Assembly: GCA_040219065.1 (NCBI GenBank)
Contig: JAVJTD010000031.1
Location: 32,236-96,235 of the forward strand
Origin: Planctomycetota bacterium
Lineage (GTDB): Bacteria > Planctomycetota > OFTM77
Direction of reading: 5' to 3'
DNA: 64,000 nt
A model generated the notes under the pieces. It was not told the origin of the DNA. It made no database searches and was given only the letters and a program-made list of their open reading frames with translations. Each line of letters begins with the position of its first letter. The first letter of the stretch is position 1. Made by a program: the position numbers and the translations under genes. Below, one piece after another: positions 9,862-63,069 of this stretch.

Positions 9862-10061
9862 CGCACCCTGCAAATCGAGCGCGCCGCCGCAAGGAGTGCC
9901 CAAGCCGAAGCGAGCGGAAGACGACCTGGTCGAGAAGGCAACACCGAGCGAGCTTGGGCCAAGGCAGCGCAGAACGCGTCGAGCAAGGAGTGCTCACGAA
10001 CCTTCGAGCTCCCATCCTTGCGCCCGGAAAGCCCCTCTGCCTATAATCCGGCCCTCGACGT

Positions 10062-28039: not shown

Positions 28040-28864
28040 TCATTCCTTCAAACGAAAACAGGCCGTCTTGACCTCCGGGACGGTCTCGAAGGCCTCTCCC
28101 GCCGCCAGCGTCATCTCTGGTGCCCCCAGGAACAAGAACCCGTCCGGCCGGAGCCGGGGTCGAATGGCCTGCAGGACGTTCCTCTTGGTCTCCGGGCTGA
28201 AGTAGATGAGCACGTTGCGCAAGAAGATGAGATCGAAGGGCTCACCCCGCACCGGGAGATTCAACAGGTTCAAGGACCGGAACGTGACGAGCTCGGTGAC
28301 CTCCGGGTGCAGCGCCCAATCGTTGCCGTCCTTGACGAAATACTTCTGCAGGTACATCGACGGCAGACCACGCCCCACCTCGAGGCTGGAGAAGCGACCG
28401 CGACGAGCACGCTCGATGACCAGCTCCGAGATGTCGGTGGCCAGGATCGAGATGTCCCAGCTCGCAAGGTCATTGAACTTCTCGAGGATCGTCATCGCGA
28501 TGCTGAAGGGCTCTTGTCCCGTCGAGCAGGCCGCGCTCCAGATGCGGATCCTCTTGTCCTCCCGGCGCGACCTTCGCAGCATCGGGAGGATGACCTCGTT
28601 CAAGGCATCGAAGGGCGTTTGGTCGCGAAAGAACGACGTCTCGTGCGTCGCCATCGCATGAACGATGCGATCGGTGACCGGCGAGCTCGGCGTCGATTCG
28701 GCGGCACTCAGCAGCGCATGGGCCGAGTCTTGTCCCGAGGCTCTCGCCAGCTCCGAGAGTCGGAACTCGATCAGGTAGTTCTTCCCCTCGTCGAGCACGA
28801 TTCCCGAGCGCTTTCGAACCAGATCGCGAACGAACTGGTACTGTTGAGCGGACAAAGAGCTCAT
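28040..28864 (-). CDS. cheR: chemotaxis protein methyltransferase CheR (copy 1)
   Basis: CheR N-terminal helical domain plus SAM-MTase core (IWSAACSTGQEPFSIAM, LRNVLIYF). The start is set at MSSLSAQQ; upstream extensions in the ORF track are rejected. Confidence 0.85.
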   Translation of the reverse strand: MSSLSAQQYQFVRDLVRKRSGIVLDEGKNYLIEFRLSELARASGQDSAHALLSAAESTPSSPVTDRIVHAMATHETSFFRDQTPFDALNEVILPMLRRSRREDKRIRIWSAACSTGQEPFSIAMTILEKFNDLASWDISILATDISELVIERARRGRFSSLEVGRGLPSMYLQKYFVKDGNDWALHPEVTELVTFRSLNLLNLPVRGEPFDLIFLRNVLIYFSPETKRNVLQAIRPRLRPDGFLFLGAPEMTLAAGEAFETVPEVKTACFRLKE

Positions 28865-29967
28865 GTGACGGGTCTCGAGGTCGGGTCGATGCGGGGCGCG
28901 GGGCTCGCTCCTCGTCCGGCCTGCGCCGCCCGTGTGAGGCGCGGGGCAACCTGGCCGAGGGGCACGACGTCGTCGGCGAGGCCGGCTTGGGCAACGGCGC
29001 CTGGCATCCCCCACACGATCGAGGTCGCCCGGTCTTGCACGAGGACTCTCGCTCCGGCGGCCTTGAGCGTTTGCGCTCCGAGGAGACCATCCTGTCCCAT
29101 GCCCGTGAGCACGACGCCCAGGACACGGTTTCCGAACACCTCCACCGCCGACTGGAAGAGCACGTCGGCCGCCGGGCGGCAGGAGTTCACCGGCTCGGTG
29201 TCGGTGAGAGCCGTCTCGATCTGGATTCCTTGACGCCGCACCGTCAGGTGCCGTCCGCCGGGCGCGATCCAGATCTGGTTCGGTCCCAGCACCTCGCCGC
29301 CTTGGGACTCCCGCACCTCGAGCGGCGTCTGGGCATCGAGCCTCTGCGCCAGGAGTTGAGTAAAGGTCGGCGGCATGTGCTGCACGATCAGGATCGGGAT
29401 CGGCAGCGTGGCCGGGAATTGGGAGACGATGTCCGCCAGAGCGTTCGGGCCACCGGTGGACACGGCGACGACGATCGCGTCGACCTTCTGCGACGGTGCT
29501 GCCGCCGGGGAAGTCGCATTGAGCGTGGTAGCGGCAACCGCGAGGCCCACTGGACGCAGTCGTCCGCACAGCGCCTTGATCTTGGGAATCAGGTCTTGGC
29601 GGATGCGGTCCATCGCCGTGCTCACGCTGCCGACGTTGGCGGGTTTGGCGACGTAGTCGGAGGCACCGCGCGAGAGCGCCTCGAGCGTGGCAGCGGCACC
29701 GCGCTCGGTGCGCGTGCTGAACATGATCACGGGAAGCCGCGGCCATTTCTTGCGGATCTCGGAGACCGTCTCGAGACCGTCGAGCACCGGCATCTCGACA
29801 TCGAGGATCACGACGTCCGGCTGCACCTGCTCGATACGGGTCAAGCCGACTCTTCCGTTCGGTGCGGTTCCCGCGACCAACAGCTCTGGATCATCCGAGA
29901 GCACGTTGGTCAGCATGCGCCGCACGACGATCGCGTCATCGACGATGAGGACACGCAGCTTGTTCAT
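28861..29967 (-). CDS. cheB: CheB methylesterase (copy 2)
   Basis: Receiver domain (VLIVDDA...VILDVEMPVLDG) plus methylesterase with GMGQDG. Confidence 0.85.
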   Translation of the reverse strand: MNKLRVLIVDDAIVVRRMLTNVLSDDPELLVAGTAPNGRVGLTRIEQVQPDVVILDVEMPVLDGLETVSEIRKKWPRLPVIMFSTRTERGAAATLEALSRGASDYVAKPANVGSVSTAMDRIRQDLIPKIKALCGRLRPVGLAVAATTLNATSPAAAPSQKVDAIVVAVSTGGPNALADIVSQFPATLPIPILIVQHMPPTFTQLLAQRLDAQTPLEVRESQGGEVLGPNQIWIAPGGRHLTVRRQGIQIETALTDTEPVNSCRPAADVLFQSAVEVFGNRVLGVVLTGMGQDGLLGAQTLKAAGARVLVQDRATSIVWGMPGAVAQAGLADDVVPLGQVAPRLTRAAQAGRGASPAPRIDPTSRPVT

Positions 29968-30724: not shown

Positions 30725-31579
30725 TCAAAGTGGAATCGTCTTCCGTCCTCCGGGAGGTGGCGTCGGCCCCGAGCGCTGGAAGTACCCGGCCTTTCCCAAT
30801 CCGCGCCGCTCGATGGTCGTGTCGAAGCCCTGCAAGCTCTCTCCGTTTCCCAGGAAGAGGGCTCCGTCGGGCCGCAGCACGCTCTCGACCTCGCTCACGA
30901 CTCGGCGCTTCGTATCGATGTCGAAGTAGATCAGCACATTGCGAATGAAGACGATGTCGAACGGTTCGAGCGGAGGAAGCTTCTGCACGAGGTTCATCTG
31001 TCGAAACTCCACCGCCTGGCGCAGGCTCGGCTCGATGCGGAAGCCCCGTCCATCCGGGTGGAAGTACTGTTCCACTTGTTTCTGAGTCAGCCCGCGATGG
31101 ACCTCGACCGCGGTGTACCAGCCTTCGCGCGCCCGCTCGAGGGCACGCTGCGACAGGTCGGTCGCCAGGACCTCGAGCTCCCATCCGAGTAGCTCGGGGC
31201 AGCTCTCGCGAATCGCGATCACCAGGCTGTAGGGCTCCTGTCCCGTCGAGCAGGCCGCGCTCCAGATCCGCAAGCGCCGACGATCCTGACGAGCGCGGAT
31301 CAGGGCGGGAAGCACTTCGTGAGTGAGGACCTGGAAAGGGAACACGTCGCGAAAGAAGAAGGTCTCGTTCGTCGTCATCGCGTCGACGACCCGGCTCTGC
31401 ATGGCGGCCCAGCCGGCATGCAGCCCGTCGAGGATCTCCTCGAGTGAGCGCCCCTCGTCTCGTGCCAAGCGCTCCAGGCGCATCTCGACGAGGTAACTCT
31501 TGTCGGTCGGCAGGAGGATCCCTGAATCCGACTCGACGAGGCGACGGATCACCTCGAAATCGCGTGGCTGGATCGGCAT
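30725..31579 (-). CDS. cheR: CheR methyltransferase (copy 2)
   Basis: IWSAACSTGQEPYSLVIA and IRNVLIYF motifs. The start is set at MPIQPRDFE. Confidence 0.85.
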   Translation of the reverse strand: MPIQPRDFEVIRRLVESDSGILLPTDKSYLVEMRLERLARDEGRSLEEILDGLHAGWAAMQSRVVDAMTTNETFFFRDVFPFQVLTHEVLPALIRARQDRRRLRIWSAACSTGQEPYSLVIAIRESCPELLGWELEVLATDLSQRALERAREGWYTAVEVHRGLTQKQVEQYFHPDGRGFRIEPSLRQAVEFRQMNLVQKLPPLEPFDIVFIRNVLIYFDIDTKRRVVSEVESVLRPDGALFLGNGESLQGFDTTIERRGLGKAGYFQRSGPTPPPGGRKTIPL

Positions 31580-31640
31580 GGTAGACTCCCCTCGGGCACG
31601 CATCCGGCTCGGACGCAGGCCCTCCCCAAGGACACCCGGC

Positions 31641-34217
31641 TCAGATTCGGAACTGATCGACCAGCATTTGCAGCTCGCCGGCGAGGCGTGACAGCTCGGA
31701 GGCGGCTGTCCGATTGGACTCGACTCCCGCGCTCGTGCTCTGCGCCACCCGCGCGACCGCCGTGACGTTCTGCGCGATCTCACCACTTCCGGAAGCCGCC
31801 TCGGAGATGTTGCGGCTGATCTCGTTGGTCGTGGCCGTCTGCTCCTCGACCGCGCTGGCGATCGTGTTGGAGATGTCGTTGATGCGATCGATGACCGAGC
31901 TGATCTCCTCGATCGCCTCGACGGCGCTCTTGGTATCGCCCTGGATCGTCTCGATCTTCTGGCTGATGTCCTCGGTCGCCTTGGCCGTCTCCTTGGCGAG
32001 CTCCTTGACCTCGTTCGCGACGACGGCGAACCCCTTGCCGGCTTCACCGGCGCGGGCGGCCTCGATCGTCGCGTTGAGGGCGAGCAGGTTGGTCTGCTCC
32101 GCGATCGAAGTGATCACCTTGATGACGTTGCCGATCTCGGTGCTGCTCTCGCCCAGCTTGGCCACGGTCATGTTGGTGGTCTGGGCGACGCGCACGGCGG
32201 CCGTCGCGACGCGAGCGGCCTCGTTCGAGTTCTCGGCGATCTCGCGGATGCTCGCCGACATCTCCTCGACACCGGTCGCCACCGACTGCACGTTGTGCGA
32301 CACCTGGCTCGCCGCGCCCGAGACGAGCTCGGCCTGGCTGCAGGTCTCGTTCGCGTTGTCGCCGATCTGAGCGCTCACCTGCTCGAGGGAGCTTCCCGCC
32401 GCCGCCAAGGCGCCCGAGTTCTGAGCGATGGAGCCCAGGCTGGCGCGCAGCCTTTGGAAGAAGCGTCCGAGCGCCGCCCCGATCTGACCGATCGCATCGT
32501 CGCCATCCATCGGCACGGTCTGGGTCAAGTCACCCGACTCGGCCGCATTGACGACATCGAGGATGCTGTCGACTCGTCGGTGCAACGCCTCGGCCGCTAT
32601 GCGCTCACGCTCGCTGGCCGTGCGCAGCTCTTCTTGGCGGCGCAGCTCGTCAGTGACCTCCTGCCAGATCAACATCCGGCCAAGGTCGCGACCCTCCCGG
32701 TCGGTGACCGTCGAACCGAAGACACGGAAGGCATCGTGGTCGAGCTGAATGACGGTGTCCAAGCTGTCGTCGCCGTCGCCCGCGACCCAGGCCTCGAGGC
32801 TTCCGGCGCGATGGCAGAAGTCGTCGAAGCTCGCCCGCCCCGACTGCAGCGCGCTCGCGGTGAACATCGATCCGTGAGCATCGGCGAGCTGACGGAGTGC
32901 CCGGTTCGAGAAGCGAATGCGTCCCGAGGAGTCGAGCAGCAGAGTCGGCGTCGGCGAGAACTGCACCATCGCCGAGACGCGCTCGACCTCTTGGCGCTGG
33001 CCGGCGAGCTCGGACCAGTCGACCCGCTCGGAGCCGAGGGCCGAGCGAATATCGGTGAGCGCCTCGTCCAGCGCGCTCGCCATCGAGCCGATCTCGTTCG
33101 AGCTCTTCTTCGAGAGGCGGCTGCTCAGGTCACCGCCCCGGAGGCGGTCGACGGCCTCGCGAATCTCGCGCACCGGCTGGGTGATTCCGTTCGAGACGAA
33201 TACACCGGCGCCGACGAGCAAGACGAGCAGGACAAGGCCCACCGTGGCGAGCGACGACCGCAGGGAAGAGATGGAGGCGAAGGCCTCCTCGGCGTCCTGC
33301 CGGACGAGGACCGACCAGCCGAGGCCATCGAAGTCGCCGAAGCCCTCGGAGTGGGCAAAGCCGACGATGTGCTGCGATCCTCCCGGTGCGTCCTCGAGCT
33401 TGAAGCCGGCCTTGCCCTGCACCGCGAGCTGGGCCGCTTCGATGCCGAGACGGGTCGGGTTCACGTCACCGAGGATCATCGCGGCATCGAGATCATCGAC
33501 GACGAAGCCCTCGCGATTCAGCACTTGAGTGTGCGCCGACCCGAATCCGTGCGAGGCGAGCTGCTTGCGGAAGTCGGCCGCGATGTCGCGCACGACAACC
33601 GCCTGTGAGGCGCAGGCGAGCCAGACGCGCGAGACGGCGCCACCGGGGGCGTAGACCGGAGCGGCGATCTGGACCACCAGGCCCCGACCACCCGTCGCTC
33701 GCGCGACCGCCTTGTCGGCGACCAGATCCGACATCCACCAGCCAGCGCTTCGCGGCAAGCGAAGCCCTTTCTCGAACCACTCTTGGCCTTGGACGCTCGT
33801 GCCGACCAAAGAGGCCGCATCGAGCGGACGGCCATCGTGGTCGAGCTCGCTGGTCGCGAGGACCTTGCCGTCGCGGTCGGCGACCAGCACGAGGTCATAG
33901 CTCGGATCGAGGAGCGACAGCTCTGCCGCGGCCGCGGACAGCTCCTGCGGAGTCTCCAGGCCGGTAGAATGGGCCGCCAAGGACTCGACGAGCCGGGCGC
34001 GGTCCCTGAGCCCGCGATCCATCAGATCGAGCATTGAGACCGCCAATCCCTCGAGGCGCTCGCCCGAGTCCTCGATCAGCGCCTCCCGGGCCCGGCCCAT
34101 GGAGAGCACGGCGACGACGACCGCCGGCACCATCCCCAGGACCAGGAACGAGAAGATCAGCCTCGAGCGCAAGCTCGTCAGGATCGACCCGGAAACACCT
34201 TCACTCGACTTGATCAT
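31641..34217 (-). CDS. methyl-accepting chemotaxis protein with a large periplasmic sensor, HAMP and additional cytoplasmic modules
   Basis: N-terminal TM, a roughly 300-aa extracytoplasmic region and a second TM. HAMP ([18 protein letters not shown]) and a canonical MCP signalling domain ([31 protein letters not shown]). Confidence 0.85.
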
Positions 34218-34757: not shown

Positions 34758-37205
34758 TCAGAGCTCCATTGGGGCGGTGTCGAGGAGGCCCGGATCGACG
34801 CAGCGAATCACCGTCTCGAGGTCGAGGATGTCGGTGACCGTCCCGTGGATCACGGCCGCGCCTCCCACTCCCGGTCGGCCCGATCGCTTCTCGATGCGGA
34901 TACGCTCGTCGACGATGTCATCGATCTGATCCACGATGAGCCCGATGCACTGCTCGTCGCGGGAGTACACGATGATCTGGACCACGTCCTGCTCGGCTTC
35001 GATCGGTGCGCCGTAGCCACCGCCCACGGCATGCGCCAATGAGATCAGAGGCATGATGCGGCCGCGATACTGCACGACGAGGCGATCGCCGCTGTTCTCG
35101 ACCCGCGAGGCGTCGAACTCCTCGAGCCGGTTGACCAGTCCGAGCGGGATCGCGAAGCGGCCTTGCTCTCCGACCGTGACCAGAAGCAACGTGTGGCGCT
35201 CGAGCGCCTCCTCCTCGGCCGGTGGCTTGGCGACGACCAAACGCTTGTCGCCGACCTCGGAGACGACCTTGCCTTGCTGAGCGACACCGAGCACATCGAG
35301 GATGAGCGAGACCGAGCCATCCCCGAGGATCGTCGCGCCTGCGAAGACCGGGATGTCCTTGAGCGTCTTGTCGAGCGGCTTGACGACGATCTCCTGCGTG
35401 TCATTGATCGTGTCGACGATCATGCCGAACTGCCGATCGTCCGCCCGCAAGACCACCATGTTGATGGAAGTCGACTCCTTATCTTCGGGCAGCCTGAGGA
35501 GCTGGTTCAGGTAGACGAGCGGCAAGAGCGTGCCGCGGAGCCGGTAGACCGGCGTGCCGTGAATGCGCTCGATCGCGGTGCGCGCTTGCTCGCCGTCGAG
35601 ACGAACGAGCTCGAGGAGACTCACCTGCGGGATCGCGAAGCGCTCGCCGCCACTGGTCACCATCAAGGCCGGGATGATGGCCAGGGTCAGTGGGATCTTG
35701 ATCTTGAGCGTCGTGCCGCGGCCCACCTCCGAAGAGATGTCGAGCGAGCCACCGATCTTCTCGATGTTCGTGCGGACGACGTCCATGCCGACGCCGCGCC
35801 CGGAGACCTTCGTCACCGCCTCGGCGGTCGAGAAGCCGGGACGGAAGATCAGGTGGATCAGCTCGCGATCGGTCATCGTGCTGGCCTGATCCGGAGTGAT
35901 CAGCCCCTTCGAGAGCCCCTTCTCCCGCATCTTCGCCGGATTGATGCCGCCGCCGTCGTCGACGATCTCGATGTTGACCTGGCCTCCCTCGTGGAAGGCG
36001 TTCAGGCGAAGCACGCCCTCGGCGGGCTTGCTGTTCTCGACCCTTACCTCGGGCTTCTCGATGCCGTGGTCCACCGAGTTCCGCACGATGTGCGTCAGGG
36101 GGTCCTTGATCGCCTCGATGATCGTTCGGTCGAGCTCGGTCTCCTTGCCCTCCATCTCGACGCGCACTTGCTTGCCGCACATCACCGCGAGGTCGCGGAC
36201 GACGCGCGGAAACTTGCCCCAGACATTGCCGATCGGCTGCATGCGCGTCTTCATCACGCCCTCTTGCAGCTCGGTGGTGATCAGGTTCAATCGCTGCGAC
36301 GTGGCGAGCAGCTCCGGCTCGCTGGTGTCGCTCGCGTACTGGAGGACCTGGTTGCGGGCGAGCACGAGCTCCCCGACCTGGTTCATGAGCTTGTCGAGCA
36401 ACCCGACGTCGACGCGGATGCTGGCCTCGGACATTCCCGGGCCGCCGGCCTTGGTCGGCTTGACGGGAGCGGGCTCTGCAGCGGCCGGCTTTACCGGCGG
36501 CGGTGGCGTCGGCGCATCGGGCACCGAAGCTTCTCTGGCGGGCGCACTCGAAGAGGTACCAGCGGTGGATGCCGCGGGCTTGTTCTGGTTGAACATCACC
36601 AAAGAGCTCGCCGGGCCGCCAGCCGTCGCGGCCGGCTCCGCTTGTGGCTTCGGCTTGTTCTGATGGAACATCACCAAGGAGCTCGAAGGCGCAGAGCTCG
36701 GGGCCGGCTCGTCGGTGGGGGTGACCTCGGCGACGGGCTCCGGCTCGGCCGCAGGAAGAGCGGACGCCGCGGGCTCGGGCGAAGCCTCCGCAGCAGGAAC
36801 GGGAGCAGCCGGTTGATCGGCGTTGAGACGCGTGAGCTCGGTGACGAGCTCGGCATACTCGGCGTCACCGTCGGTGCTGGTCTCCTCGATGTTGCCGAGC
36901 ATCTCTCGTACGGCATCGACCATGCCGAGCAGCGCGGTCGTGATCTCGGGAGTCAAGGTCAGCTCGCCGTCGCGCAGCTTGCTCAGCAAGTTCTCTCCGA
37001 CATGGGTCACCCGCTCGAGGTTCTCGAAGGCGAGGAAGCCGGCAGTTCCCTTGATCGTGTGGATCGTCCGGAAGACGGCCGCCAGCGTGTCCCGATGAGT
37101 CGGATCCTGCTCCAACGCGACGAAGTCGGCGTCGAGCTGATCGAGGTTCTCGTAGCTCTCGACCAGGAACTCCTTGAGGACATCATCCATGTCGCTCAGG
37201 CTCAT
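34758..37205 (-). CDS. cheA: CheA histidine kinase (Hpt, P/A-rich linker, dimerisation, HATPase, two C-terminal CheW-like domains)
   Basis: Hpt His in FRTIHTIKGTAGFL. HATPase G-boxes (DDGGGI, GRGVGMDVV). Two CheW-like P5 modules. Confidence 0.9.
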   Translation of the reverse strand: MSLSDMDDVLKEFLVESYENLDQLDADFVALEQDPTHRDTLAAVFRTIHTIKGTAGFLAFENLERVTHVGENLLSKLRDGELTLTPEITTALLGMVDAVREMLGNIEETSTDGDAEYAELVTELTRLNADQPAAPVPAAEASPEPAASALPAAEPEPVAEVTPTDEPAPSSAPSSSLVMFHQNKPKPQAEPAATAGGPASSLVMFNQNKPAASTAGTSSSAPAREASVPDAPTPPPPVKPAAAEPAPVKPTKAGGPGMSEASIRVDVGLLDKLMNQVGELVLARNQVLQYASDTSEPELLATSQRLNLITTELQEGVMKTRMQPIGNVWGKFPRVVRDLAVMCGKQVRVEMEGKETELDRTIIEAIKDPLTHIVRNSVDHGIEKPEVRVENSKPAEGVLRLNAFHEGGQVNIEIVDDGGGINPAKMREKGLSKGLITPDQASTMTDRELIHLIFRPGFSTAEAVTKVSGRGVGMDVVRTNIEKIGGSLDISSEVGRGTTLKIKIPLTLAIIPALMVTSGGERFAIPQVSLLELVRLDGEQARTAIERIHGTPVYRLRGTLLPLVYLNQLLRLPEDKESTSINMVVLRADDRQFGMIVDTINDTQEIVVKPLDKTLKDIPVFAGATILGDGSVSLILDVLGVAQQGKVVSEVGDKRLVVAKPPAEEEALERHTLLLVTVGEQGRFAIPLGLVNRLEEFDASRVENSGDRLVVQYRGRIMPLISLAHAVGGGYGAPIEAEQDVVQIIVYSRDEQCIGLIVDQIDDIVDERIRIEKRSGRPGVGGAAVIHGTVTDILDLETVIRCVDPGLLDTAPMEL

Positions 37206-37632
37206 CGGTGCTCTCTCTCCGTCAAAGCTGGGCGCGACGCAACGCGACCCAGGCCTTCCTCACCCGCGGTGACCACCTCGGCTCGTTTCGACTCGAGACG
37301 TGGGAAGAAGAGAGACCACCCCCTCCAGGGAGAGTTTCCCGGCTGCCCACACCCTTGGCCTTATCGGCCAAACTCGCCGCGGACTTTGCCCTTTGTTCGC
37401 AACCTGTCGAAACCCTGCGGCAACCACGGACGACGGTGCCTGCGGATCTTCTGCGACCTCCGAGAGCTTCTCGCCGAGAGCACGGCGCGGGTGTGGAGTG
37501 CACGGTTGAGGTTTTGGGGTTTTGAAGTTCTTGGAGATTGTCTGTCGCAACTCCGCGAGTCGGGTCGTTCTCTCCAGTGGGTAAACGGAATGGCGGCGAG
37601 AGCCGCCGGGAAATCAGATTGGAGAGAGTCTG

Positions 37633-37974
37633 ATGAACTGGATCGCATTCTGTCTGTTGTCCCTGCTGCCCCTGTCGGCGCCGACGCCTCGGCCGGTGGA
37701 CAATCAGCCCTGCATTCTGAAGCTGAACCTGACCACTGGCGCGTTCATGTGCTTCGATGCCGACTGCACGCCGTGCGACGAGCTCGAGGTGACGATGGAG
37801 GGCACGACGATCACACGCTGCTCGTGTAGCGGCGGCGGCTCCTACGACGGGACCTGCTGGGGCAAAGGTGAGACGGTCGCCGGACAGTCGACGCTCATCT
37901 GCATCGCAGGCACGAGCTGCAACGACTGTGACTTCGACGCGGATGGCACTTGGAAGTGGTGCATCTGCCAATGA
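37633..37974 (+). CDS. secreted Cys-rich mini-protein (113 aa, 13 Cys)
   Basis: Signal peptide MNWIAFCLLSLLPLSAPTP followed by a Cys-dense mature region (CSCSGGGSYDGTCWG...CNDCDFDADGTWKWCICQ). Confidence 0.45.
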   Translation: MNWIAFCLLSLLPLSAPTPRPVDNQPCILKLNLTTGAFMCFDADCTPCDELEVTMEGTTITRCSCSGGGSYDGTCWGKGETVAGQSTLICIAGTSCNDCDFDADGTWKWCICQ

Positions 37975-37999
37975 CTTTGGGAAGAAGGAGAGAGCAACG

Positions 38000-38653
38000 A
38001 TGACCAAGTTGATGATCGTGACGGCGGCAATGTTGGCCGCTCTCGGATCGAGTGGACCACTCTTCATCGAAGAAGAGCCGCCCGCTCCCGACCCTTCGGA
38101 GTTCGTCGAGTTTCGCTACGACGCCGACCCGAGCCTTGGCTTCCTCGGAGAGTGGCAAGGTGAGGACCTTCGCGAGGTGACTTCGGTCGAAGAGGAACCG
38201 GGACGAGTTCGGGTCCATTGGATTCAACTCGACCGAGCCCGATTCGTGGTCGACTCGGCGTTGGTCGGAGAGCGATTTCAGCGTGGACAGAGAGTCGAAG
38301 TCGACGTTCCCTCATCACTCCGTCTCGCGTTGACAGTGAATCCCGAGGGCGAGGTCGCGCCGAGGATCGACTACCGGGCGGAAGCGGACCTCGCGTCTCC
38401 GGAAGGTCATCCCGCCGCCCTCGGGACGCGGAAGTCGAGGCAGGTCGACGGGAGCACCCATCGAATCTCGAAGGCGGTCTACATCTCCGATCGGGAGAAG
38501 GTGGTCGGCTACCAAGCCTCGCCCGGCACCCTGACCATCGAGGAGAACGCCGTGCGCTTTGGGGTCGAGCTCGAGGTGACCGAGCCCTACGGCCTATTGA
38601 TGGCACGCCGGGCCAACGGTGACCTCTACTTCTGGCTCGTGCCTGGCAACTGA
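38000..38653 (+). CDS. secreted hypothetical protein (217 aa)
   Basis: GAAGGAG RBS upstream and signal peptide MTKLMIVTAAMLAALGSSG. No recognisable domain. Confidence 0.45.
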   Translation: MTKLMIVTAAMLAALGSSGPLFIEEEPPAPDPSEFVEFRYDADPSLGFLGEWQGEDLREVTSVEEEPGRVRVHWIQLDRARFVVDSALVGERFQRGQRVEVDVPSSLRLALTVNPEGEVAPRIDYRAEADLASPEGHPAALGTRKSRQVDGSTHRISKAVYISDREKVVGYQASPGTLTIEENAVRFGVELEVTEPYGLLMARRANGDLYFWLVPGN

Positions 38654-38737
38654 GCTTTCGCTTCCAGGGAAGAAGGAAAAGGGCCCGAGTGCCTCAGCAC
38701 TCGGGCCCTCGCTTTCCTGGTTCCGAGCCCGACCGAT

Positions 38738-41074
38738 TCAGAACGGCAGGCTGACCTCGATGTCGTCCGAGCCGACGCCGAGCGGTTGCTCTTGAACCTC
38801 TCCGTTCGATTCCCAACGAAGCAGGTACGAGCCCGCGGCGAGAGTCCGAGCGACCGTATGGAGCTTGTTCCTCGGAATGAACGGGACCGACGCACAGACG
38901 ACGTCGTCCGAAGATCGGACGATGAAGAGCCGGCCCGGCTCCGCGGAGACCGGGAGGTCTGCCACGAACTTCACCGTGTGGAACTGACTGGGGATCTCGA
39001 GATCGATCGCCGCTGGCAAGGGTCCCCCCTCGAGCTTGCCGACGGGCATGGCGAGGTGATCGGCTCCAGCCTCGGCCGGAGAAGGTGCCCAGTAAAGAGT
39101 CCCCAAGGCGTTCTGCTCGAGTGCCAGCTTACCTCCGGACTCCGCAACGATTCGCTGCGGGTTATTGCTCCGCTCGAAGTACACCGAGCCATCGGAGACA
39201 GGGATACCGGCCATGCGCTTGGTGATTGGAACCGAAAGCATCTGAGCCTGCAGCGAGATCGTCCCGAGATCCTGGCCCAAGGAGCTTTCCAAATTCAAGG
39301 CGCACGTGGTGACCTCGTATCCGGGAGCTCGGATCTCCAGCTTGCTCTCTCCGAGCGGGACATCGGACAGAGTGAAGAGACCGTTGCTGACGCCGAGGAG
39401 CTCGCTCACCTCTCGGCCCCGATTGCGGTCCCAGATCAGCTCAACCTCGGGTACCGTCGTGATCGGAGTATTGGATTCGGAGTCGATGAGCTCGAAGGTC
39501 ACCGGACCGAAGCCATCGGTGAGGTATTGAGTCGGAAGGACGAAGCTCAGCGTGGCCCCCGGCAACGAGCTCAGCGGCTGTGAGCGAACGATCCGGCTCT
39601 TGAACATCGCGAATAGCGTGATCGGCGGAAGCTGATGAAGCTCCAGCACCCGTCCGCCAGCCGTCGGTGAATACGTGTATCGACTGGAATCGCCGACGAT
39701 GAGGCTCTCCGCAGAGGATTCCATCGAGGAGCGCCAAGTCCCGGGCTGCGGCTCCGCCGGCGAGGCGAGGAAGCCGATGCTCGCGATGTGGTCCCGGAGA
39801 TACGGACTCGCTCCGATCTGGTCCAGGTAGCTGGTCCAGAGCTGACCGGACTCGGTCACGAGCTGCACCGAGAATGAATGGATCGCATCGAATCGGATTC
39901 GAATTCGGCCGGGATCCGCGGGATCCGAAACGGTCCACTGGACGCTCGATTGCAGGTAACCAGCGCTCGTCTCGAGCGTCCCCGTGGTACCCACGACATT
40001 CTCGAAGACCACGACGCCGGACTTGTCGGTCACACCCGACATCGATTCCCCTTCCGGCGACTCGAGCTGAACCTGCAGTCCCGCCACCCGGCGCCGAGTA
40101 TTCGCCCGATCGACCAAGATGAACTCCAGGCGCATCGGATCATGACTCGCAGCCATGGTGCCACCGCCCGGAAGATCGCTACGACCCGGCACCGAGGCGG
40201 CATCCGTGGAGGAGACGGAGGGAGCGCTCGGCTCGGGCACCAGTGTCGCGCTCGAGAAGGGCCCAGAGCTCGTCACGTCGGGCTCGGGGGCTAGAGTATC
40301 GCGAGAGGAGCCACTTCCGAGCTCAATGGGCTCGCCCGGCTGTTCGAGGACCTTCGAACTGATCGCGACGATCGAAACGATGCCCAAGACGCTCGCCGCG
40401 ACCCAGCCCACGATCTTCGGGATCGAAGTCGAGGTCGAGCTGGCGACGCCCAGCCCTTTGGAGATCCTTCGGATCGCGACCAGATCGCCCGGCGCGAGCA
40501 GCGGCACCAGGGCCGACAACCAGACCTGCCGGTCTCCATTCGATCGATCGTCCAACCGCCGACGGAATTCCTTGAGTCCTCGATCGAGCCGAGACTTGAT
40601 CGCCTCTCGGCCGACTCCCTCCCGATTCGCGATCTCTTGGAGCGAGAGTCCTTCGAAGAAGCGGGCGACCAAGGTCCGCTGATAGATCTCCCCCATGGCG
40701 TCGAGCTGATCGAGCAGCAACCGATGCGTCTCGAGCTGCTCCTGCGCCGAGACGACTCGATCCTCCTCTTCGGACCTCTCGGCCACCAACAGGAATTGGG
40801 ACCGATGCTTCTTGGCACGCATCTGGTCCCGAAGGTGTCTCAAGAAGACTCGATACAGCACCTTGCGCAACCAGGCCCGCAACTGACTCTGGTTCTCGAT
40901 CGATGGCGGCGACTTCAGTGCCCGCAGGTACGTGTCTTGAAGGATCTCCTCAGCACTTTCCACGTCCCCCACGAGATGGATCGCGAATCGACGCAGGGCC
41001 TCCTGATGATCCTCGAGCATTTGGGCTTCGAAGCCGACTGCTCTGGCCAGCCCGGCCTTTCGACTGTGCACCAT
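38738..41074 (-). CDS. ECF sigma-70 factor fused to a TM segment and a roughly 500-aa extracytoplasmic domain (sigma/anti-sigma-like fusion)
   Basis: The N-terminal roughly 190 aa carry sigma-70 region 2 (AEEILQDTYLRAL) and region 4 (LSLQEIANREGVGREAIKSRLDRG). A single TM (IVGWVAASVLGIVSIVAI) is followed by a large beta-rich C-terminal domain. Confidence 0.6.
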   Translation of the reverse strand: MVHSRKAGLARAVGFEAQMLEDHQEALRRFAIHLVGDVESAEEILQDTYLRALKSPPSIENQSQLRAWLRKVLYRVFLRHLRDQMRAKKHRSQFLLVAERSEEEDRVVSAQEQLETHRLLLDQLDAMGEIYQRTLVARFFEGLSLQEIANREGVGREAIKSRLDRGLKEFRRRLDDRSNGDRQVWLSALVPLLAPGDLVAIRRISKGLGVASSTSTSIPKIVGWVAASVLGIVSIVAISSKVLEQPGEPIELGSGSSRDTLAPEPDVTSSGPFSSATLVPEPSAPSVSSTDAASVPGRSDLPGGGTMAASHDPMRLEFILVDRANTRRRVAGLQVQLESPEGESMSGVTDKSGVVVFENVVGTTGTLETSAGYLQSSVQWTVSDPADPGRIRIRFDAIHSFSVQLVTESGQLWTSYLDQIGASPYLRDHIASIGFLASPAEPQPGTWRSSMESSAESLIVGDSSRYTYSPTAGGRVLELHQLPPITLFAMFKSRIVRSQPLSSLPGATLSFVLPTQYLTDGFGPVTFELIDSESNTPITTVPEVELIWDRNRGREVSELLGVSNGLFTLSDVPLGESKLEIRAPGYEVTTCALNLESSLGQDLGTISLQAQMLSVPITKRMAGIPVSDGSVYFERSNNPQRIVAESGGKLALEQNALGTLYWAPSPAEAGADHLAMPVGKLEGGPLPAAIDLEIPSQFHTVKFVADLPVSAEPGRLFIVRSSDDVVCASVPFIPRNKLHTVARTLAAGSYLLRWESNGEVQEQPLGVGSDDIEVSLPF

Positions 41075-41300
41075 GTGTCTCCTCCTCCTCGATGGACAGG
41101 AGCCAACGACTCTCCAACTTCCCCCTCTCGGTGAAGCTCTCCCATACTCCCTGGAATCCCGATGGCGAGGAAACGGGGGCAGAGAATCGAGCGGGGGCGA
41201 TCGTCCCGTCTCTGAAGTCTACTCAAAGGCCCGGACCGAGGAGCTCCCTTTTCCCTCCACCCGCGGTCGCACGGGCGCCGAAGAGAGAAAAACTTCTCTC

Positions 41301-41786
41301 ATGAGAAAATTTTCTCTCGCGCTCTCGCCCGTTCCCACGTCTCATCGAGCGACGGAAGCGAATGGACCGAGACCACAGGAGCCTCTCGTGACCGATCCTC
41401 AAAACCTCAGTCGCCGCGAGCGACAGATCATGGACATCGTCTACGAGCTCGGCCAGGCGACCTCCGCCGAGATCCTCGAGCGCCTCCCCGATCCCCCCAG
41501 CGCCGCTTCCGTCCGGACGCTGCTCCGCATCCTCGAAGAGCGCGGGCACCTCCGCCACACCCCGGACGGACCGCGCTACGTCTATCACCCCACCGTCCCG
41601 CGCAACCGCGCCAGCCGCTCCGCGCTGCGCCACGTCTTGCGGACATTCTTCGAGAATCGCGTCACGGGCGTCGTCGAGACCCTCCTCGACATCGAGGGCA
41701 AGAACCTCTCTCAAGAGGAGGTCGCCCGGCTCGCCGAGCTCATCGAGCACATCCAGGAGACCGAGGAGCAGGAGGACGATCGATGA
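41301..41786 (+). CDS. BlaI/MecI/CopY-family transcriptional repressor
   Basis: Winged-helix LSRRERQIMDIVYELGQATSAEILERL...SVRTLLRILEERGHL. The start is uncertain, with an alternative GTG at 41388. Its stop overlaps the downstream BlaR1-like gene. Confidence 0.7.
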   Translation: MRKFSLALSPVPTSHRATEANGPRPQEPLVTDPQNLSRRERQIMDIVYELGQATSAEILERLPDPPSAASVRTLLRILEERGHLRHTPDGPRYVYHPTVPRNRASRSALRHVLRTFFENRVTGVVETLLDIEGKNLSQEEVARLAELIEHIQETEEQEDDR

Positions 41787-44242
41787 CCTTCGATGGCGCC
41801 CTTGCTTGGACACCGCTCGTTCTTGCCCTGAAGGTCAGCCTCCTCGTCTCGGTCCTGTGGCTCCTTCACCCTTGGCTTCGCCGCAGCACCGCCCGCACCC
41901 GCGCCCTCGCGACCACGGCCACCCTCGCCGGTGCCCTCCTCGTCCCCATGACCGGTTGGCTGCCTCGCTGGGAGCTCCCCCTCGTCACGCTCGAGAGCCC
42001 GGCTCCTGACCCGCTCCCCATCGCGATACTTCCTGAGGAGGTCTTCACGGAGGGCGCCATCGAGCCGATCGGGCCACAGGTCGCGCCGCAAGTCTCGTCA
42101 GAAGGCCCTGCCTCGAGCCTCTCACTCGGCGTCGGCCTCGAGACCATCTGGTGGCTCGGCTCCAGCCTCTCACTCCTGCTCATCGCTTCGGGGCTGCTGC
42201 TCGCGACGCGTTGGAAACACCGAGCGACTCCGGTCCGCTGCCCGCTCTGGCTCGCGGACCTCGAGCGGCTGCGCCTCCGGCTGGGAGTCCGCCGGGCGGT
42301 CGACCTGCGGTCCGGCACTCACGTTCCCGGACCGCTCACGTTCGGTCACCTCCGCCCGACGATCCTCGTTCCGACTGACCATCACGAGTGGTCGCCCGAG
42401 CGCCGGGAGATCGTCCTCCTCCACGAGCTCGCTCACGTGCGTCACGGTGACTGGCTCGCCCAGCTCATCGCCCGCGCCGCCCGCGCTCTCTACTGGTTCC
42501 ACCCGCTCGTCCGACGTGCCGCTGCGCAGTGGCAAGTCGATCGCGAGCTCGCCTGCGACGCCGCCGTCGTCGCCGCCGGCATCCGACCCTCGCGCTACGC
42601 CTCCGAGCTCCTCGCGTTGGCTCAAATCGAGCCGCCGCGAGCGAACGCCCGAACACTGGGCCTGTGGATGGCCCATCCTCGAAAGCTGGAAGGAAGAATC
42701 ATGGCACTCCGACACGCAGTCGGTGCACCGCGCCGCTCGCGAGCGCTCTACTGGCTCGCCTTCACGGGTCTCTTCGCCATCGGCATCGGAACGCTCCAGC
42801 CGTGGGCGGCCGCCCAGGACGATGACCACCGCGTCGTCTGGGAAAGCGCCTCCGGTGAGCAGGTCGTCCTGGATACCTCGGACGGGAACACCGTCATCTT
42901 GATCCGCCGTGACGGGGAGGACCTGCGGCGCATCGAGCTGAAGGGAGACCCTGCCGAGATCGAAGGGGACGCGAGATACGCCATGCGCACTCGCAAGAGT
43001 GACGACGGGCACACCGTCCACGAATGGATCGTCCCCGAAGCCGACGACGGCCGAGCCGTCCGAGAGTGGCTCGTTCCCGACTCCGAGGACGGTCAGACGG
43101 TCTGGCGTTTGGCGAGGCCAAGAGCCGTTGGCGAGCAGGATCGATTCCCGTCCTCCGGCGAGGTGCAAATCGATGGAGAGACCATGCGCTACCGGAGTCG
43201 CCCGACTGAGTGGCCCTCGGGGCAAGTTCGCTCCGACCAAGAGGTCATCGAGTATCGCTCGGTTCCCCGGCCTTCGAGCCCCGACGGGTCCAACGACGTC
43301 TACTGGTACGACGACCAGTGGCGGACGATGCAAGACTCCGAGCGATACGAGGTGATCATCGAGAGCTCTGGTGAGTCGGGCCGGACCCGTCGCTACGTCG
43401 TCGACGAGAAGGGGCGCCCCGTACCCGCGCCGAAAGCCGCCCCCCGCGCTCGCCGCGCCATTCGCGACTCCGACGGGCCCTCCTCGAATGAGCCACAGCC
43501 GCGGAGCCGCGTGCGCTTCCAGGATCGCGATGAGGCCTGGCGGCCCCGTTTGCGAACGGATCTCTGGGAAGAGGCCCCGCAACCCAACCCCCAAGAGTCT
43601 CCGCGCATCGAGCGAGCCCCGCGGATAAACAGAGCTCCGCGTGTCGAAAGGGCCCCGCGTATCGAGCGTGCCCCGCGGATAAATAGAGCGCCTCGCATCG
43701 AGCGAGCCCCGCGTGTCGAGCGTGCCCCGCAGATCAATAGAGCGCCTCGCATCGAGCGAGCCCCGCGTCGTGCCCCGTCTCGCGAGGCCGTTCGGTCGTC
43801 GCAGCAGGACATGGGCATCAATAGGCGTCAGCCGAGCGCGATCCGTCGACCGGCGATCATTCCGGACACCGAGCCCGAGCCACGCGCTCTGCGCCTTCCA
43901 TCTTCTGCTCCTCGCGCCCGCTCAATCTACCGCACCCAGCCTCCGCAGCCATCACCCTCGCCTCGCCCGCAAGTCTACTTCCGTAGTCCGGCACCCTCGA
44001 TTGACACGGCTCCTGCGCCACCTCGCGTCATGCGCTTTCAAGCGCCGCCGGTCGAGACGCCCTCGGCGCCTCGGAGCCGCTACTTCCGCAACTCGGAGAC
44101 GCTTCCCGAGCCGGCTCCGGTCCAGCCCCGCGCATTGCGCCGCGGTGTGCCGGGCGCTCCTGAGCGCATTCGCGAGGATCGCCCCGAGCCGACTCCAGTA
44201 AAGCCGAAGGGCAAGATCGTTCGCGCCAACACGATGCGCTGA
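41783..44242 (+). CDS. BlaR1/MecR1-like M56 peptidase-domain membrane sensor with a long repetitive C-terminal region
   Basis: HEXXH in LLHELAHVRHGDW within a polytopic N-terminal region. The C-terminal half is low-complexity, with about 10 tandem RAPR(I/V)(E/N) hexapeptides. Confidence 0.7.
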   Translation: MTFDGALAWTPLVLALKVSLLVSVLWLLHPWLRRSTARTRALATTATLAGALLVPMTGWLPRWELPLVTLESPAPDPLPIAILPEEVFTEGAIEPIGPQVAPQVSSEGPASSLSLGVGLETIWWLGSSLSLLLIASGLLLATRWKHRATPVRCPLWLADLERLRLRLGVRRAVDLRSGTHVPGPLTFGHLRPTILVPTDHHEWSPERREIVLLHELAHVRHGDWLAQLIARAARALYWFHPLVRRAAAQWQVDRELACDAAVVAAGIRPSRYASELLALAQIEPPRANARTLGLWMAHPRKLEGRIMALRHAVGAPRRSRALYWLAFTGLFAIGIGTLQPWAAAQDDDHRVVWESASGEQVVLDTSDGNTVILIRRDGEDLRRIELKGDPAEIEGDARYAMRTRKSDDGHTVHEWIVPEADDGRAVREWLVPDSEDGQTVWRLARPRAVGEQDRFPSSGEVQIDGETMRYRSRPTEWPSGQVRSDQEVIEYRSVPRPSSPDGSNDVYWYDDQWRTMQDSERYEVIIESSGESGRTRRYVVDEKGRPVPAPKAAPRARRAIRDSDGPSSNEPQPRSRVRFQDRDEAWRPRLRTDLWEEAPQPNPQESPRIERAPRINRAPRVERAPRIERAPRINRAPRIERAPRVERAPQINRAPRIERAPRRAPSREAVRSSQQDMGINRRQPSAIRRPAIIPDTEPEPRALRLPSSAPRARSIYRTQPPQPSPSPRPQVYFRSPAPSIDTAPAPPRVMRFQAPPVETPSAPRSRYFRNSETLPEPAPVQPRALRRGVPGAPERIREDRPEPTPVKPKGKIVRANTMR
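43601..43785 (+). repeat. tandem 18-bp in-frame repeats encoding (E/N)RAPR(I/V) units
   Basis: ATCGAGCGAGCCCCGCGG-like units are reiterated about 10 times in the nucleotide sequence. Confidence 0.75.
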
Positions 44243-57255: not shown

Positions 57256-58578
57256 ATGCTCAAACCGCTCTGTTTCGTGCTCATGCCTTTCGGTGTGAAG
57301 CCAGGTCCCGATGGCCGGGACATCGACTTCGACGAGGTGTATCGCGAGCTGCTGAAGCCCGCCATCGAGGAGGCGGACCTCGAGCCGATCCGCGCTGACG
57401 AGGAGAGTGTCGGCGGCGTCATCCACAAGCCGATGCTCGAGCGACTCGCGATGTGTGACTACGCGCTCGCCGATCTCACCGCGGCCAATGCCAACGTGTT
57501 CTACGAGCTCGGCGTGCGGCACGCGATCCGGCCGTCACGCACGCTGCTCGTGTTCGCCGAGGAGTACCCGCTCCCCTTCGACGTCAGCCTGCTGCGCGCC
57601 GTGCCCTATCACCTCGGGCAGAAGGGACTCATCAAGGTTCCCCAGACGATCCACGCGATCGCGAGACAGCTCGAAGAGGCGCGCCAAGCCAAGATCGACA
57701 GTCCCGTCTTCCAGTTCCTCGATGACCTGCAGCCGCAGTTCCTCCCTCACGAGAAGACCGACGTCTTTCAGGATCGCGTCGAGTATGCCGAAGACCGCAA
57801 GCGCGAGCTCGCCCGAGCCCGTGAGGACAAGAACCTCGCCGCGGTCCAGCAGATCGAGCGTGAGCTCGGCCCGGTCGAGGATGTCGAAGCCGGCATCGCG
57901 ATCGACCTGATGCTCACCTATCGCGCCATCAAGAATTGGGACGAGATGATCCGCTGGATCGAGTCGCTCCCCAGGCCCCTTCGAGAGCGCCGCATGGTCC
58001 AGGAGCAGCTCGGCTTCGCCTACAATCGCGCCGGGAAGAAGGGCGATGCGATCCGCACTCTCGAGGCCGTCGTCGAGCAGCACGGCCCGAGCAGCGAGAC
58101 GCTCGGCATCCTCGGCCGAGTCTACAAGGACAAGTGGGACGAATCCGACAAGGGCTCGGCAGAGGCGAACGGCCTTCTGGACAAGGCGATCGATGCCTAC
58201 CGCCGAGGCTTCGAAGCCGACTGGCGAGACGCCTATCCGGGTGTCAATGCCGTAACGCTGATGGAGCTGGCCGACCCACCGCGGAAAGAGCGCGATGAGC
58301 TGCTACCAGTCGTGACGTACGCCGTCGAGAGAAAGGTCGCCAAAGGCAGCCCCGACTATTGGGACTGGGCCACCCTCCTCGAGCTCGCCGTCATCGGCAA
58401 TGACAAGAACCTCGCCAAAGAGCTCCTCCCCCTGTGCCTAGCCAACGTCCGAGAGCCCTGGGAGCCCGAAACCACGGCTAACAACCTCGAGATGATTCGC
58501 CAGGCGAGGAAGAGGCGGGGCAAGAATCAAGGCTGGCTGAAGAAGATCATCGCGGGGTTGGTGGAGAAGGGGAATTGA
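57256..58578 (+). CDS. nucleoside 2-deoxyribosyltransferase-like (SLOG/flavodoxin-like) N-terminal domain fused to a TPR-like helical C-terminal domain
   Basis: CFVLMPFG and NVFYELGVRHA motifs mirror the NDT (L/I)AGPxF and FE(L/I)G(Y/F)A motifs. The C-terminal roughly 250 aa are alpha-helical repeats (YPGVNAVTLMELAD). Confidence 0.55.
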   Translation: MLKPLCFVLMPFGVKPGPDGRDIDFDEVYRELLKPAIEEADLEPIRADEESVGGVIHKPMLERLAMCDYALADLTAANANVFYELGVRHAIRPSRTLLVFAEEYPLPFDVSLLRAVPYHLGQKGLIKVPQTIHAIARQLEEARQAKIDSPVFQFLDDLQPQFLPHEKTDVFQDRVEYAEDRKRELARAREDKNLAAVQQIERELGPVEDVEAGIAIDLMLTYRAIKNWDEMIRWIESLPRPLRERRMVQEQLGFAYNRAGKKGDAIRTLEAVVEQHGPSSETLGILGRVYKDKWDESDKGSAEANGLLDKAIDAYRRGFEADWRDAYPGVNAVTLMELADPPRKERDELLPVVTYAVERKVAKGSPDYWDWATLLELAVIGNDKNLAKELLPLCLANVREPWEPETTANNLEMIRQARKRRGKNQGWLKKIIAGLVEKGN

Positions 58579-62458: not shown

Positions 62459-63069
62459 CACTGTCCCTCCTCCTTCGAATCGTCCAAGAGATCGATCGAT
62501 TCGAGCTGCTCGGTCTCCTCGACGAGCTCGACGATACGCTCGAGGATCTTGCCGCTCTGGCTGCTGACGGTTTGCTCCTGGAGAGCCTTTGCGGCCGAGA
62601 GCTGTCCGAGCGCCGTGTCGATCGCTTCGAAGAAGGCCGAGGGGTCGGAGTCCATGATGATCGCCAGGCGATGATCTCGCGGCGCTTCGCGGAACCCTTC
62701 GGGTCCGAAGAGCATCAGGCCGCGGCCTGTCTTCAGACCGAAGTTCTGACTCTCTCCGTCGTGGCCGAACTGCAGCTCGCCCTTCTCCCGGTCGAACGTG
62801 ATCCGCGAGCCGAGCGAATCGATCAGGTCCGCCGGAACCCAGCCGGCGGCGTAATTGACCGTGCTGAAGAAGTCCGAGGTCCCGGTGACGCGCACGCGGT
62901 AGATCGTCGGCGGCACCTGCTCGATGGGATCGAACACCCCGAGGTAATACGTCTGCTCGATCTGGTGCGATCGGCAGCTCGCGGCGAGGAAGACCGTCCA
63001 CAACCCGGCAATCAGGAAAGCGCCCTGGCCAAAGCGTCCGACCCGCCGGCTCCGTCCACGATGAATCAT
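62458..63069 (-). CDS. small lipoprotein (203 aa)
   Basis: Signal peptide plus lipobox FLAASC. Translationally coupled to the giant coiled-coil gene. Confidence 0.45.
   Translation of the reverse strand: MIHRGRSRRVGRFGQGAFLIAGLWTVFLAASCRSHQIEQTYYLGVFDPIEQVPPTIYRVRVTGTSDFFSTVNYAAGWVPADLIDSLGSRITFDREKGELQFGHDGESQNFGLKTGRGLMLFGPEGFREAPRDHRLAIIMDSDPSAFFEAIDTALGQLSAAKALQEQTVSSQSGKILERIVELVEETEQLESIDLLDDSKEEGQ

Follow-up and report, generated by a model that had tools for sequence, protein, structure and literature searches.

We analyzed a 64,000-nucleotide stretch of the Planctomycetota bacterium assembly GCA_040219065.1 (contig JAVJTD010000031.1, positions 32,236 to 96,235 of the forward strand; this stretch is called the window, and positions below are counted from its first nucleotide) and found that it carries a pair of adjacent genes with counterparts in three other loci. 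The first gene (37633 to 37974, + strand; RL885_01710, a hypothetical protein in the NCBI annotation of a Planctomycetota metagenome-assembled genome [MAG]) encodes a Cys-rich protein of 113 amino acids, and the second (38000 to 38653, + strand; RL885_01715) encodes a partner of 217 amino acids that contains no Cys. Comparison of the four loci identifies these genes as a genuine bicistronic operon, conserved within a narrow lineage of marine Planctomycetota. The reading we prefer, at a probability of about 45%, is that this operon encodes two envelope or secreted proteins, is driven by an extracytoplasmic function (ECF) sigma factor, and forms the local regulon of the sigma factor encoded next to it, the last regulator in a BlaR1-BlaI-ECF cascade with a role in the cell envelope.

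The Cys-rich open reading frame is a genuine gene

A preliminary description of this region, made from the sequence alone, had reported a 113-amino-acid product with 13 Cys, and both the open reading frame (ORF) and the peptide strings it quoted proved correct. The Cys residues are at positions 7, 27, 40, 45, 48, 63, 65, 75, 90, 96, 99, 110, and 112 and make up 11.5% of the protein, compared with 0.81% in 15 confident genes of the window, a 14-fold difference (binomial P = 1e-11); the Cys content also departs from that expected from raw base composition (P = 2e-5). All 13 had been placed in a mature part of about 90 residues. This part is indeed dense in Cys, but it holds 12 of them, and C7 lies inside the N-terminal hydrophobic stretch (MNWIAFCLLSLLPLSA).

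In DNA this rich in GC, Cys density cannot by itself mark an ORF as a gene, because it is matched by an artifact: a six-frame ORF at 57356 to 57907 (+ strand), with 9 Cys in 60 amino acids, is as Cys-dense as the 113-amino-acid ORF and lies out of frame with a real gene at 57256 to 58578 that encodes a MAP3K_TRAF_bd/TPR-S protein. Therefore, codon usage and homologs are the decisive evidence. By codon log-likelihood, the annotated frame of the Cys-rich ORF ranks first of six; its GC content at third codon positions (GC3) is 0.84, with 0.87 for cheA, and its synonymous-codon score of 0.43 falls between those of the neighboring ECF gene (0.32) and cheA (0.58) and is typical for the genome. A Shine-Dalgarno sequence, GGAGAG (37621 to 37626), is found 6 nucleotides before the ATG, and no in-frame start is present farther upstream. 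An antisense ORF of 281 amino acids, in which GC content is flat across codon positions, was rejected as an artifact. A chance ORF in GC-rich DNA, with no function as a gene, was what the preliminary description itself had said would undo its proposal, through frame statistics and atypical codon usage. The equally Cys-dense ORF in a noncoding frame and a family of only four members would fit this explanation, but it is effectively refuted by the codon statistics, which back the annotated frame, and by homologs with 31 to 45% identity that share the same length, every mature Cys, the downstream partner, and a stretch resembling a ribosome-binding site (RBS).

The two proteins represent an extremely rare family that has not been described before

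The homolog search that had been proposed as a check was run as a HMMER scan, exhaustive over 1.84 billion representatives. It returned three relatives of the Cys-rich protein (P0003, P0004, and P0005; 111 to 117 amino acids, 31 to 45% identity, E values of 5e-14 to 9e-12), each with the 12 mature Cys, along with two repeat proteins (P0006 and P0007) that were discarded as false positives. The four members come from four independent assemblies, are all of about equal length, and have a purine-rich, RBS-like stretch just upstream of the start codon in each locus. A profile search with the four sequences gave no fifth member, a word-indexed search of 5.8 billion clusters matched RL885_01710 and RL885_01715 each to itself only, and scans of GTDB species genomes and Joint Genome Institute metagenomes with the partner and Cys-protein alignments returned the known OFTM77 locus or nothing. 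The four Cys-family clusters are all singletons, and the family amounts to four sequences among about 15 billion proteins. By these searches, both proteins form an undescribed, extremely rare family with, so far, only four marine Planctomycetota-type sequences. The window organism comes from the metagenome of a nonaxenic culture of the marine mat cyanobacterium Coleofasciculus sp. WW12 (SRR26147846; PMC11785472), and the OFTM77 MAG comes from an Oslofjord subsea-tunnel biofilm (PMC10732223).

Neither protein had been credited with a recognizable domain, and our searches agree: Pfam, NCBIfam, PADLOC, and PHROGs gave no family match for either one, Pfam at E ≤ 10 gave only two unrelated single-member noise matches for the four Cys-family members, and sequence and profile searches of the PDB gave chance matches only (an antibody complementarity-determining region 3, a prepilin-type protein with an E value of 0.62, and FadD23). 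There was also no significant profile match to the cystine-rich families knottin, Kazal, Bowman-Birk, EGF, TIL, granulin, and YTV.

The Cys-rich gene is followed by a conserved operon partner

In all four loci, a homolog of the 217-amino-acid ORF lies downstream of the Cys-rich gene on the same strand, at a distance of 20 to 57 nucleotides. In the window, the 25-nucleotide gap between the two genes contains no terminator, and an RBS for the partner gene can be read from the sequence (GGAAGAAGGAGAGAG, 37980 to 37994, + strand). A pairing with a secreted 217-amino-acid protein with a strong RBS had been noted before; our analysis confirmed the strong RBS, the hydrophobic N terminus, and the conservation of the partner as an operon mate. 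In the partner protein, an N-terminal signal or anchor (MTKLMIVTAAMLAAL) is followed by a Pro-rich linker and an acidic body, and the C terminus (YGLLMARRxNGDLYFWLVP) is almost invariant across the partner family. The protein is 37% identical to its OFTM77 counterpart (E value, 7e-37). Between the convergent partner and ECF genes, a 14-bp GC-rich hairpin (38679 to 38710) is probably a bidirectional terminator; a search of the region with Rfam returned terminator-like noise only.

Twelve conserved Cys residues share a common framework

All 12 mature Cys are present in the four sequences with near-identical spacing, while C7 is not conserved. In a MAFFT alignment, 11 of them occupy invariant columns and the twelfth is shifted by one residue in P0004. 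The first paired-Cys motif is CTPC in the window protein and C-x3-C in the other three, and the second is C-x2-C in three members and C-x3-C in P0004. We found no conserved His, conserved Met, or CxxCH among the four family members, and the 113-amino-acid protein has no His or CxxCH motif at all. Because the spacing of the paired Cys is not fixed (x2 or x3) and there is neither a CxxCH nor a conserved His, disulfides are favored over metal or heme sites, and an even number of conserved mature Cys with variable spacing fits disulfides in an exported protein. Six structural disulfides are probable in the 113-amino-acid protein on the basis of these 12 conserved Cys.

The 12 Cys also have the appearance of two modules, which would each follow C-x12-14-C-x4-5-C-x2-3-C-x10-16-C-x-C. 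The framework is C-x12-C-x4-C-x2/3-C-x14/16-C-x-C in the first module and, after an x9 linker, C-x14-C-x4/5-C-x2/3-C-x10/12-C-x-C in the second. In a post hoc test, random placement of Cys gave halves this alike with a P value of ~0.0014.

Hydrophobic N termini suggest that both proteins are exported

Residues 1 to 16 of the 113-amino-acid protein are a hydrophobic leader, and the remaining mature part of ~97 amino acids is acidic (pI 4.05), with 13 acidic residues in addition to the 12 Cys. The protein has no RR motif. Hydrophobic stretches span 9 to 13 residues in the Cys family and 12 to 17 in the partner family, and Kyte-Doolittle 11-mer means reach 2.1 to 2.4 in these leader stretches. 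Both ranges are within or near the short type of h-region found in Sec-type signal peptides (7 to 15 residues, too short for a transmembrane [TM] helix). The 217-amino-acid partner begins with a classic n- and h-region (MTK-LMIVTAAMLAAL), and all four partner-family members have K or R in the n-region. From the hydrophobic N termini in both families, we infer that the two proteins are exported.

An ECF-type promoter-like motif lies upstream of the operon

By reading the upstream regions, we found a shared bipartite element, TGTC-N13-TCGGGNCGT, or equivalently TGTCNNN-N16-CGT(T/C). Its copy in the window is TGTCGCA-N16-CGT (TGTC-N13-TCGGGTCGT; 37543 to 37568, + strand), and exact copies occur in three of the four loci (the window, the OFTM77 locus L002 at 9894 to 9919, and locus L006 at 71 to 96), 64 to 115 nucleotides upstream of the Cys-rich start codons. 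The window copy is the only exact match on either strand of the 64 kb, for which base composition gives an estimated expectation of ~0.015 matches per window and ~5e-5 in the intergenic region. At 37543 to 37569 (TGTCGCA-N16-CGTT) and in L002 and L006, the element agrees with the layout expected of an ECF promoter, in which a spacer of 16 ± 1 nucleotides separates a −35 element from a CGT-type −10. The geometry of the window motif equals that of the ECF41 promoter, TGTCACA-n16-CGTC (Wecke et al., 2012; PMC3426412). Transcription from this site would start near 37575, and we found no sigma-70-type promoter in the upstream region. A scan that allowed up to two mismatches showed no enrichment in the window (10 matches found, 11.9 expected), so we propose no further regulon members. 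A second exact copy of TGTC-N13-TCGGGNCGT in L002 (12092 to 12117, + strand; ~0.005 expected per 20 kb) lies antisense inside the coding region of the 804-amino-acid ECF protein and has no counterpart in the window; it is either a chance match or an antisense promoter. A 12-mer, GAGACGTGGGAA, which is found upstream of both the Cys-rich gene (37295 to 37306) and the ECF gene (about 41332 to 41343, − strand), is not conserved in OFTM77 and was rejected as a regulatory element; its presence at both sites is probably a coincidence.

The predicted 5′ leader of the operon contains a GC-rich 6-bp hairpin, GGCGGC GAGA GCCGCC (37592 to 37607, + strand), and the other three loci each have a different hairpin, also rich in GC, at about this place. 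It is followed by an 8-bp stem (37613 to 37634, + strand) with the Shine-Dalgarno sequence in its loop and a 3′ arm that runs into the AUG, and the RNA fold of 37576 to 37640 has an energy of −23.9 kcal/mol (z = −4.7 relative to shuffled sequences). Analogous stems into the start codon are predicted in L006 (97 to 193; z = −2.3) and in locus L005 (60 to 165; z = −0.6), neither of which is a strong outlier, and the minimum-free-energy fold of L002 has no such stem, with only a weak hand-drawn equivalent. The stems are built from different sequences in each locus, with the RBS in the loop in the window and L006, and may act in translational control.

A membrane-tethered ECF sigma factor and a BlaI/BlaR1-like pair are encoded next to the operon

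Convergent with the pair is a gene for a 778-amino-acid ECF sigma factor (38738 to 41074, − strand). The protein has sigma-70 regions 2 and 4 at residues 17 to 178 (Sigma70_r2, E value of 1.3e-11; Sigma70_r4, 1.5e-7; TIGR02937, 1.3e-20) without region 3, as expected of an ECF factor, followed by a single TM helix near residues 221 to 239 and an extracytoplasmic extension of ~540 amino acids that contains a CarboxypepD_reg-like domain. This gene had been described as an ECF sigma/anti-sigma fusion on the opposite strand. We confirmed an ECF factor with a membrane-spanning extension but no canonical anti-sigma domain: the ~40 residues (about 180 to 215) between sigma region 4 and the TM helix, in which the segment RxVWxxALxPLL is shared with OFTM77, are too short for one. 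It is therefore a sigma factor tethered directly to the membrane and not, strictly, a sigma/anti-sigma fusion.

Divergent from the ECF gene are genes for a BlaI-type repressor (Penicillinase_R; 41388 to 41786, + strand, with a GTG start placed by homology with L002) and a BlaR1-like M56 membrane peptidase (41783 to 44242, + strand). The latter lacks a penicillin-binding sensor domain; the M56 peptidase domain (residues 16 to 309) is its only domain, and its C terminus has a tandem low-complexity peptide repeat (ERAPRINRAPRVERAPRIE..., about residues 605 to 665) in place of the sensor. The intergenic region between the ECF and blaI genes contains two tandem A/T-rich dyads, GAGAAAAACTTCTC and GAGAAAATTTTCTC (41285 to 41316), which are kept in position in OFTM77 (L002, 13734 to 13762). 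In both genomes, GAGAAAATTTTCTC-type dyads are limited to this intergenic region, and none occurs elsewhere in the window, including upstream of the Cys-rich gene. The two dyads are probably BlaI operators, in which case the ECF sigma gene would be under the control of a BlaI/BlaR1-type switch.

Among the three relatives, the OFTM77 MAG provides the only long contig (L002; the other two loci are L005 and L006). Its gene order is the same as that of the window: che genes, the Cys-rich gene, the partner, a convergent gene for an 804-amino-acid ECF protein, BlaI, and the BlaR1-like M56 peptidase. The 778- and 804-amino-acid ECF proteins are 27% identical in an alignment that spans both from end to end, and identities between the window and OFTM77 are 71% for an aminotransferase, 56% for CheB, 76% for BlaI, and 42% for BlaR1. 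The pair and the ECF extension are the fastest-evolving genes of the neighborhood (27 to 37% identity), which is typical of extracytoplasmic or surface proteins.

On the other side of the pair, cheA (34758 to 37205, − strand) is divergent from the Cys-rich gene across a 427-nucleotide intergenic region and heads a che cluster that also encodes CheW, an MCP, two CheR proteins, CheY, and CheB. The two CheR paralogs (28040 to 29746 and 30725 to 32047, − strand; 568 and 440 amino acids) have N-terminal extensions of about 160 to 300 residues without a Pfam match. Farther along the window, an ORF for 1,457 amino acids (58628 to 63001, − strand) has coding-like GC3 and no Pfam domain at E ≤ 0.001.

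A model for the operon and the points that weigh on it

In the model that we favor, a BlaR1-like protease would respond to an envelope signal and act through BlaI on the gene for the ECF sigma factor, which lies behind the probable BlaI operators and beside the BlaI/BlaR1-like sensor pair, and the sigma factor would in turn activate the operon, so that the pair would be the local output of this cascade. The operon would be transcribed from the ECF-type promoter TGTCNNN-N16-CGTT, most probably by the convergent, membrane-tethered ECF factor. The precursor of ~113 amino acids would be taken across the cytoplasmic membrane by its short hydrophobic leader, leaving an acidic, β-rich mature part of roughly 90 amino acids locked by six disulfides from its 12 Cys. 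The second gene would provide an acidic partner of ~200 amino acids, exported or membrane anchored, and the two products would serve, in the periplasm or on the cell surface, as a disulfide-stabilized binding or protective protein and its partner.

Several observations weigh against this model. At the level of the promoter, the only copy of the motif in locus L005, GCGGGACGC, is degenerate and lacks TGTC at −35; L006 has two tandem copies of the TCGGGACGT element, which could be a transcription factor site instead; and no copy of the motif was found ahead of the ECF gene, either in the window or in L002, so the sigma gene has no signature of autoregulation. Synteny with OFTM77 is weak evidence for a functional link between the pair and its neighbors, because the related genomes are collinear well beyond the module, over more than 30 kb. 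The leaders of the Cys-rich proteins are also atypical. The preliminary description had assigned a signal peptide to the 113-amino-acid product, and its N terminus is leader-like, but charge in the n-region is scarce: the window protein begins MNW, K or R is present in one of the four Cys-family n-regions (P0004, MKIGR), and a positive n-region is absent from the other three. All four of these leaders end in [A/G]-P (LSA-P, VSA-P, PLA-P, and PFG-P). With Pro right after the likely A or G cleavage residue, cleavage by signal peptidase I is disfavored, and therefore the leader may be cut elsewhere or kept as an anchor; the leaders of the Cys family may thus be uncleaved anchors. As for the fold, the structure prediction that had been proposed as a check was run, and the single-sequence AlphaFold2 models were too poor to yield one (predicted local distance difference test scores [pLDDT] of 49 and 33). 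β-Hairpins were predicted in these models with low confidence, and a Foldseek search with the first, poor model gave noise only. Finally, the resemblance between the two halves of the Cys protein does not extend to their residues, as a Smith-Waterman alignment of the halves was not significant (409 of 2,000 shuffles scored as high or higher) and hhalign gave a probability of 0.4%. An internal duplication that produced two 6-Cys modules is a hypothesis suggested by Cys spacing, not by residue similarity.

Alternative explanations for the pair

The preliminary description had likened the Cys-rich protein to toxins or bacteriocins, and a secreted, antimicrobial mini-protein used in competition within biofilms or mats, with the 217-amino-acid protein as an immunity factor, chaperone, or second component, would explain why the protein is small, disulfide-rich, and leader-bearing. 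It would also be in keeping with the extremely patchy distribution of the family, with the origin of both source organisms in dense marine biofilms or cyanobacterial consortia, and with the fast evolution of the pair (35 to 37% identity, versus 56 to 76% for flanking genes). However, we found no positive support for this likeness and consider it unlikely. Pfam analysis of the genes between ~27.5 and 63 kb revealed no double-glycine leader, ABC/C39 exporter, maturation enzyme, or membrane immunity protein, and the neighbors scanned encode che proteins, the ECF factor, BlaI/BlaR1, HEAT, PAP2, and GNAT proteins, a decarboxylase, and others. There is no match to a PADLOC, PHROGs, or Pfam toxin family and none to a cystine-knot or inhibitor family, the partner, unlike most immunity proteins, has an export signal of its own, and the locus is chromosomal and syntenic, without signs of mobile elements. 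In addition, we know of no bacterial bacteriocin that resembles a mature protein of ~90 amino acids with six disulfides. The pair could instead be an input to the cascade, that is, accessory proteins in the periplasm that would bind the ECF factor at its extracytoplasmic domain, or the BlaR1-like protease, and hold the bound protein inactive or present a signal to it. RseB for RseA and CpxP for CpxA are models for such accessory regulators. The conserved adjacency to the ECF gene points in this direction, as does the segment of only ~40 residues between sigma region 4 and the TM helix, which has no canonical anti-sigma domain, so that another form of control would be needed; the pair and the ECF extension being the fastest-evolving proteins (27 to 37% identity) would fit coevolving partners. 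On the other hand, the ECF gene is present in two loci only, too few to judge coevolution, and the partner has no detectable similarity to the ECF extension (hhalign probability, 0.2%), by which a relationship between these two proteins was rejected. This explanation also strikes us as unlikely, but it fits the ECF-type promoter and overlaps with the output model, because feedback regulators are often members of the regulon they control.

We considered it very unlikely that the protein binds metal or acts in redox reactions in the periplasm, as a member of the metallothionein or copper storage type with thiolates as the functional groups. The 12 Cys and 13 acidic residues in a mature part of 97 amino acids, the CxxC and CxC motifs, and the fact that the BlaI family includes the metal-responsive CopY would be consistent with such a function, but both paired-Cys spacings vary between x2 and x3 among homologs, conserved His and Met and CxxCH are absent, and Pfam gave no match to DUF326/Csp or metallothionein families. 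Moreover, the predicted secondary structure is β, at low confidence, the C-terminal Cys motif of CopY is missing from this BlaI protein, which is paired with an M56 protease, and no metal transporter was found among the neighboring genes scanned with Pfam. In size, Cys count, and predicted export, the 113-amino-acid protein is similar to copper storage proteins of the Csp1 type, which are exported and have 13 Cys in about 120 amino acids. In contrast, Csp proteins are four-helix bundles (DUF326) with Tat (twin-arginine translocation) signals and regular Cys spacing, whereas the protein described here has a β prediction, no RR motif, variable spacing, and no match to DUF326.

Comparison with known systems and significance

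The arrangement that we propose for the output of the cascade resembles ECF41 and its adjacent COE gene (PMC3426412) in the TGTC −35, the 16-nucleotide spacer, and the CGT(T/C) −10, as well as in having a neighboring target gene of unknown function and a sigma factor with a fused C-terminal regulatory extension. However, the ECF41 extension is SnoaL-like and cytoplasmic, whereas that of the sigma factor here is extracytoplasmic, comprises 540 amino acids, and is preceded by a TM helix, its proposed targets are predicted to be exported and are unrelated to COE, and there is no motif upstream of the sigma gene. The upstream part of the cascade is similar to BlaR1/BlaI (MecR1/MecI) in having an M56 peptidase gene directly downstream of a Penicillinase_R gene and dyads in the divergent region, but differs in having a low-complexity repeat C terminus and no penicillin-binding sensor, and in having as its divergent gene an ECF sigma factor rather than a β-lactamase or PBP2a. 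Unlike members of a BlaI regulon, the Cys-rich operon itself has no BlaI-type dyad.

Small exported proteins encoded beside, and probably controlled by, an envelope signaling system are also known from CpxP, Spy, and RseB-type proteins; because those proteins, helical or otherwise Cys-poor, are not homologous to the Cys family, the analogy is one of logic only. The eukaryotic disulfide-rich domains of the Bowman-Birk, Kazal, EGF, TNFR, and granulin types, which have internal twofold repeats, are similar in Cys density, even Cys count, small size, probable β-hairpins, and an apparent arrangement of two times six Cys, but the 113-amino-acid protein is bacterial and has no sequence or profile match to them, and, to our knowledge, its Cys spacing differs from that of each domain compared.

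Systems in which an ECF sigma factor controls a small local regulon of exported proteins are well known, and no new mechanism is demonstrated here. With a tiny family and nothing that points to a new mechanism, the practical impact of the pair will be limited until a structure or an activity is obtained. A bolder version of our model, which we regard as improbable, is that the Cys-rich protein has a new six-disulfide fold made of two 6-Cys modules and acts with its partner as a specific extracytoplasmic ligand, inhibitor, or effector of a BlaR1-BlaI-ECF cascade restricted to one lineage of marine, biofilm-dwelling Planctomycetota, for example, by neutralizing a protease or antimicrobial of cyanobacterial or biofilm neighbors. 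Membrane-tethered ECF factors, an abundant class in Planctomycetota, are poorly understood, and, if our model is correct, this locus would be a compact example of how such a sigma factor is wired, with a defined promoter and a two-gene output. It would also place an ECF sigma factor downstream of a non-β-lactam BlaR1/BlaI pair, of which we know of no characterized example in Planctomycetota, and the Cys-rich protein would be a new bacterial disulfide-rich scaffold of possible interest to protein engineers.

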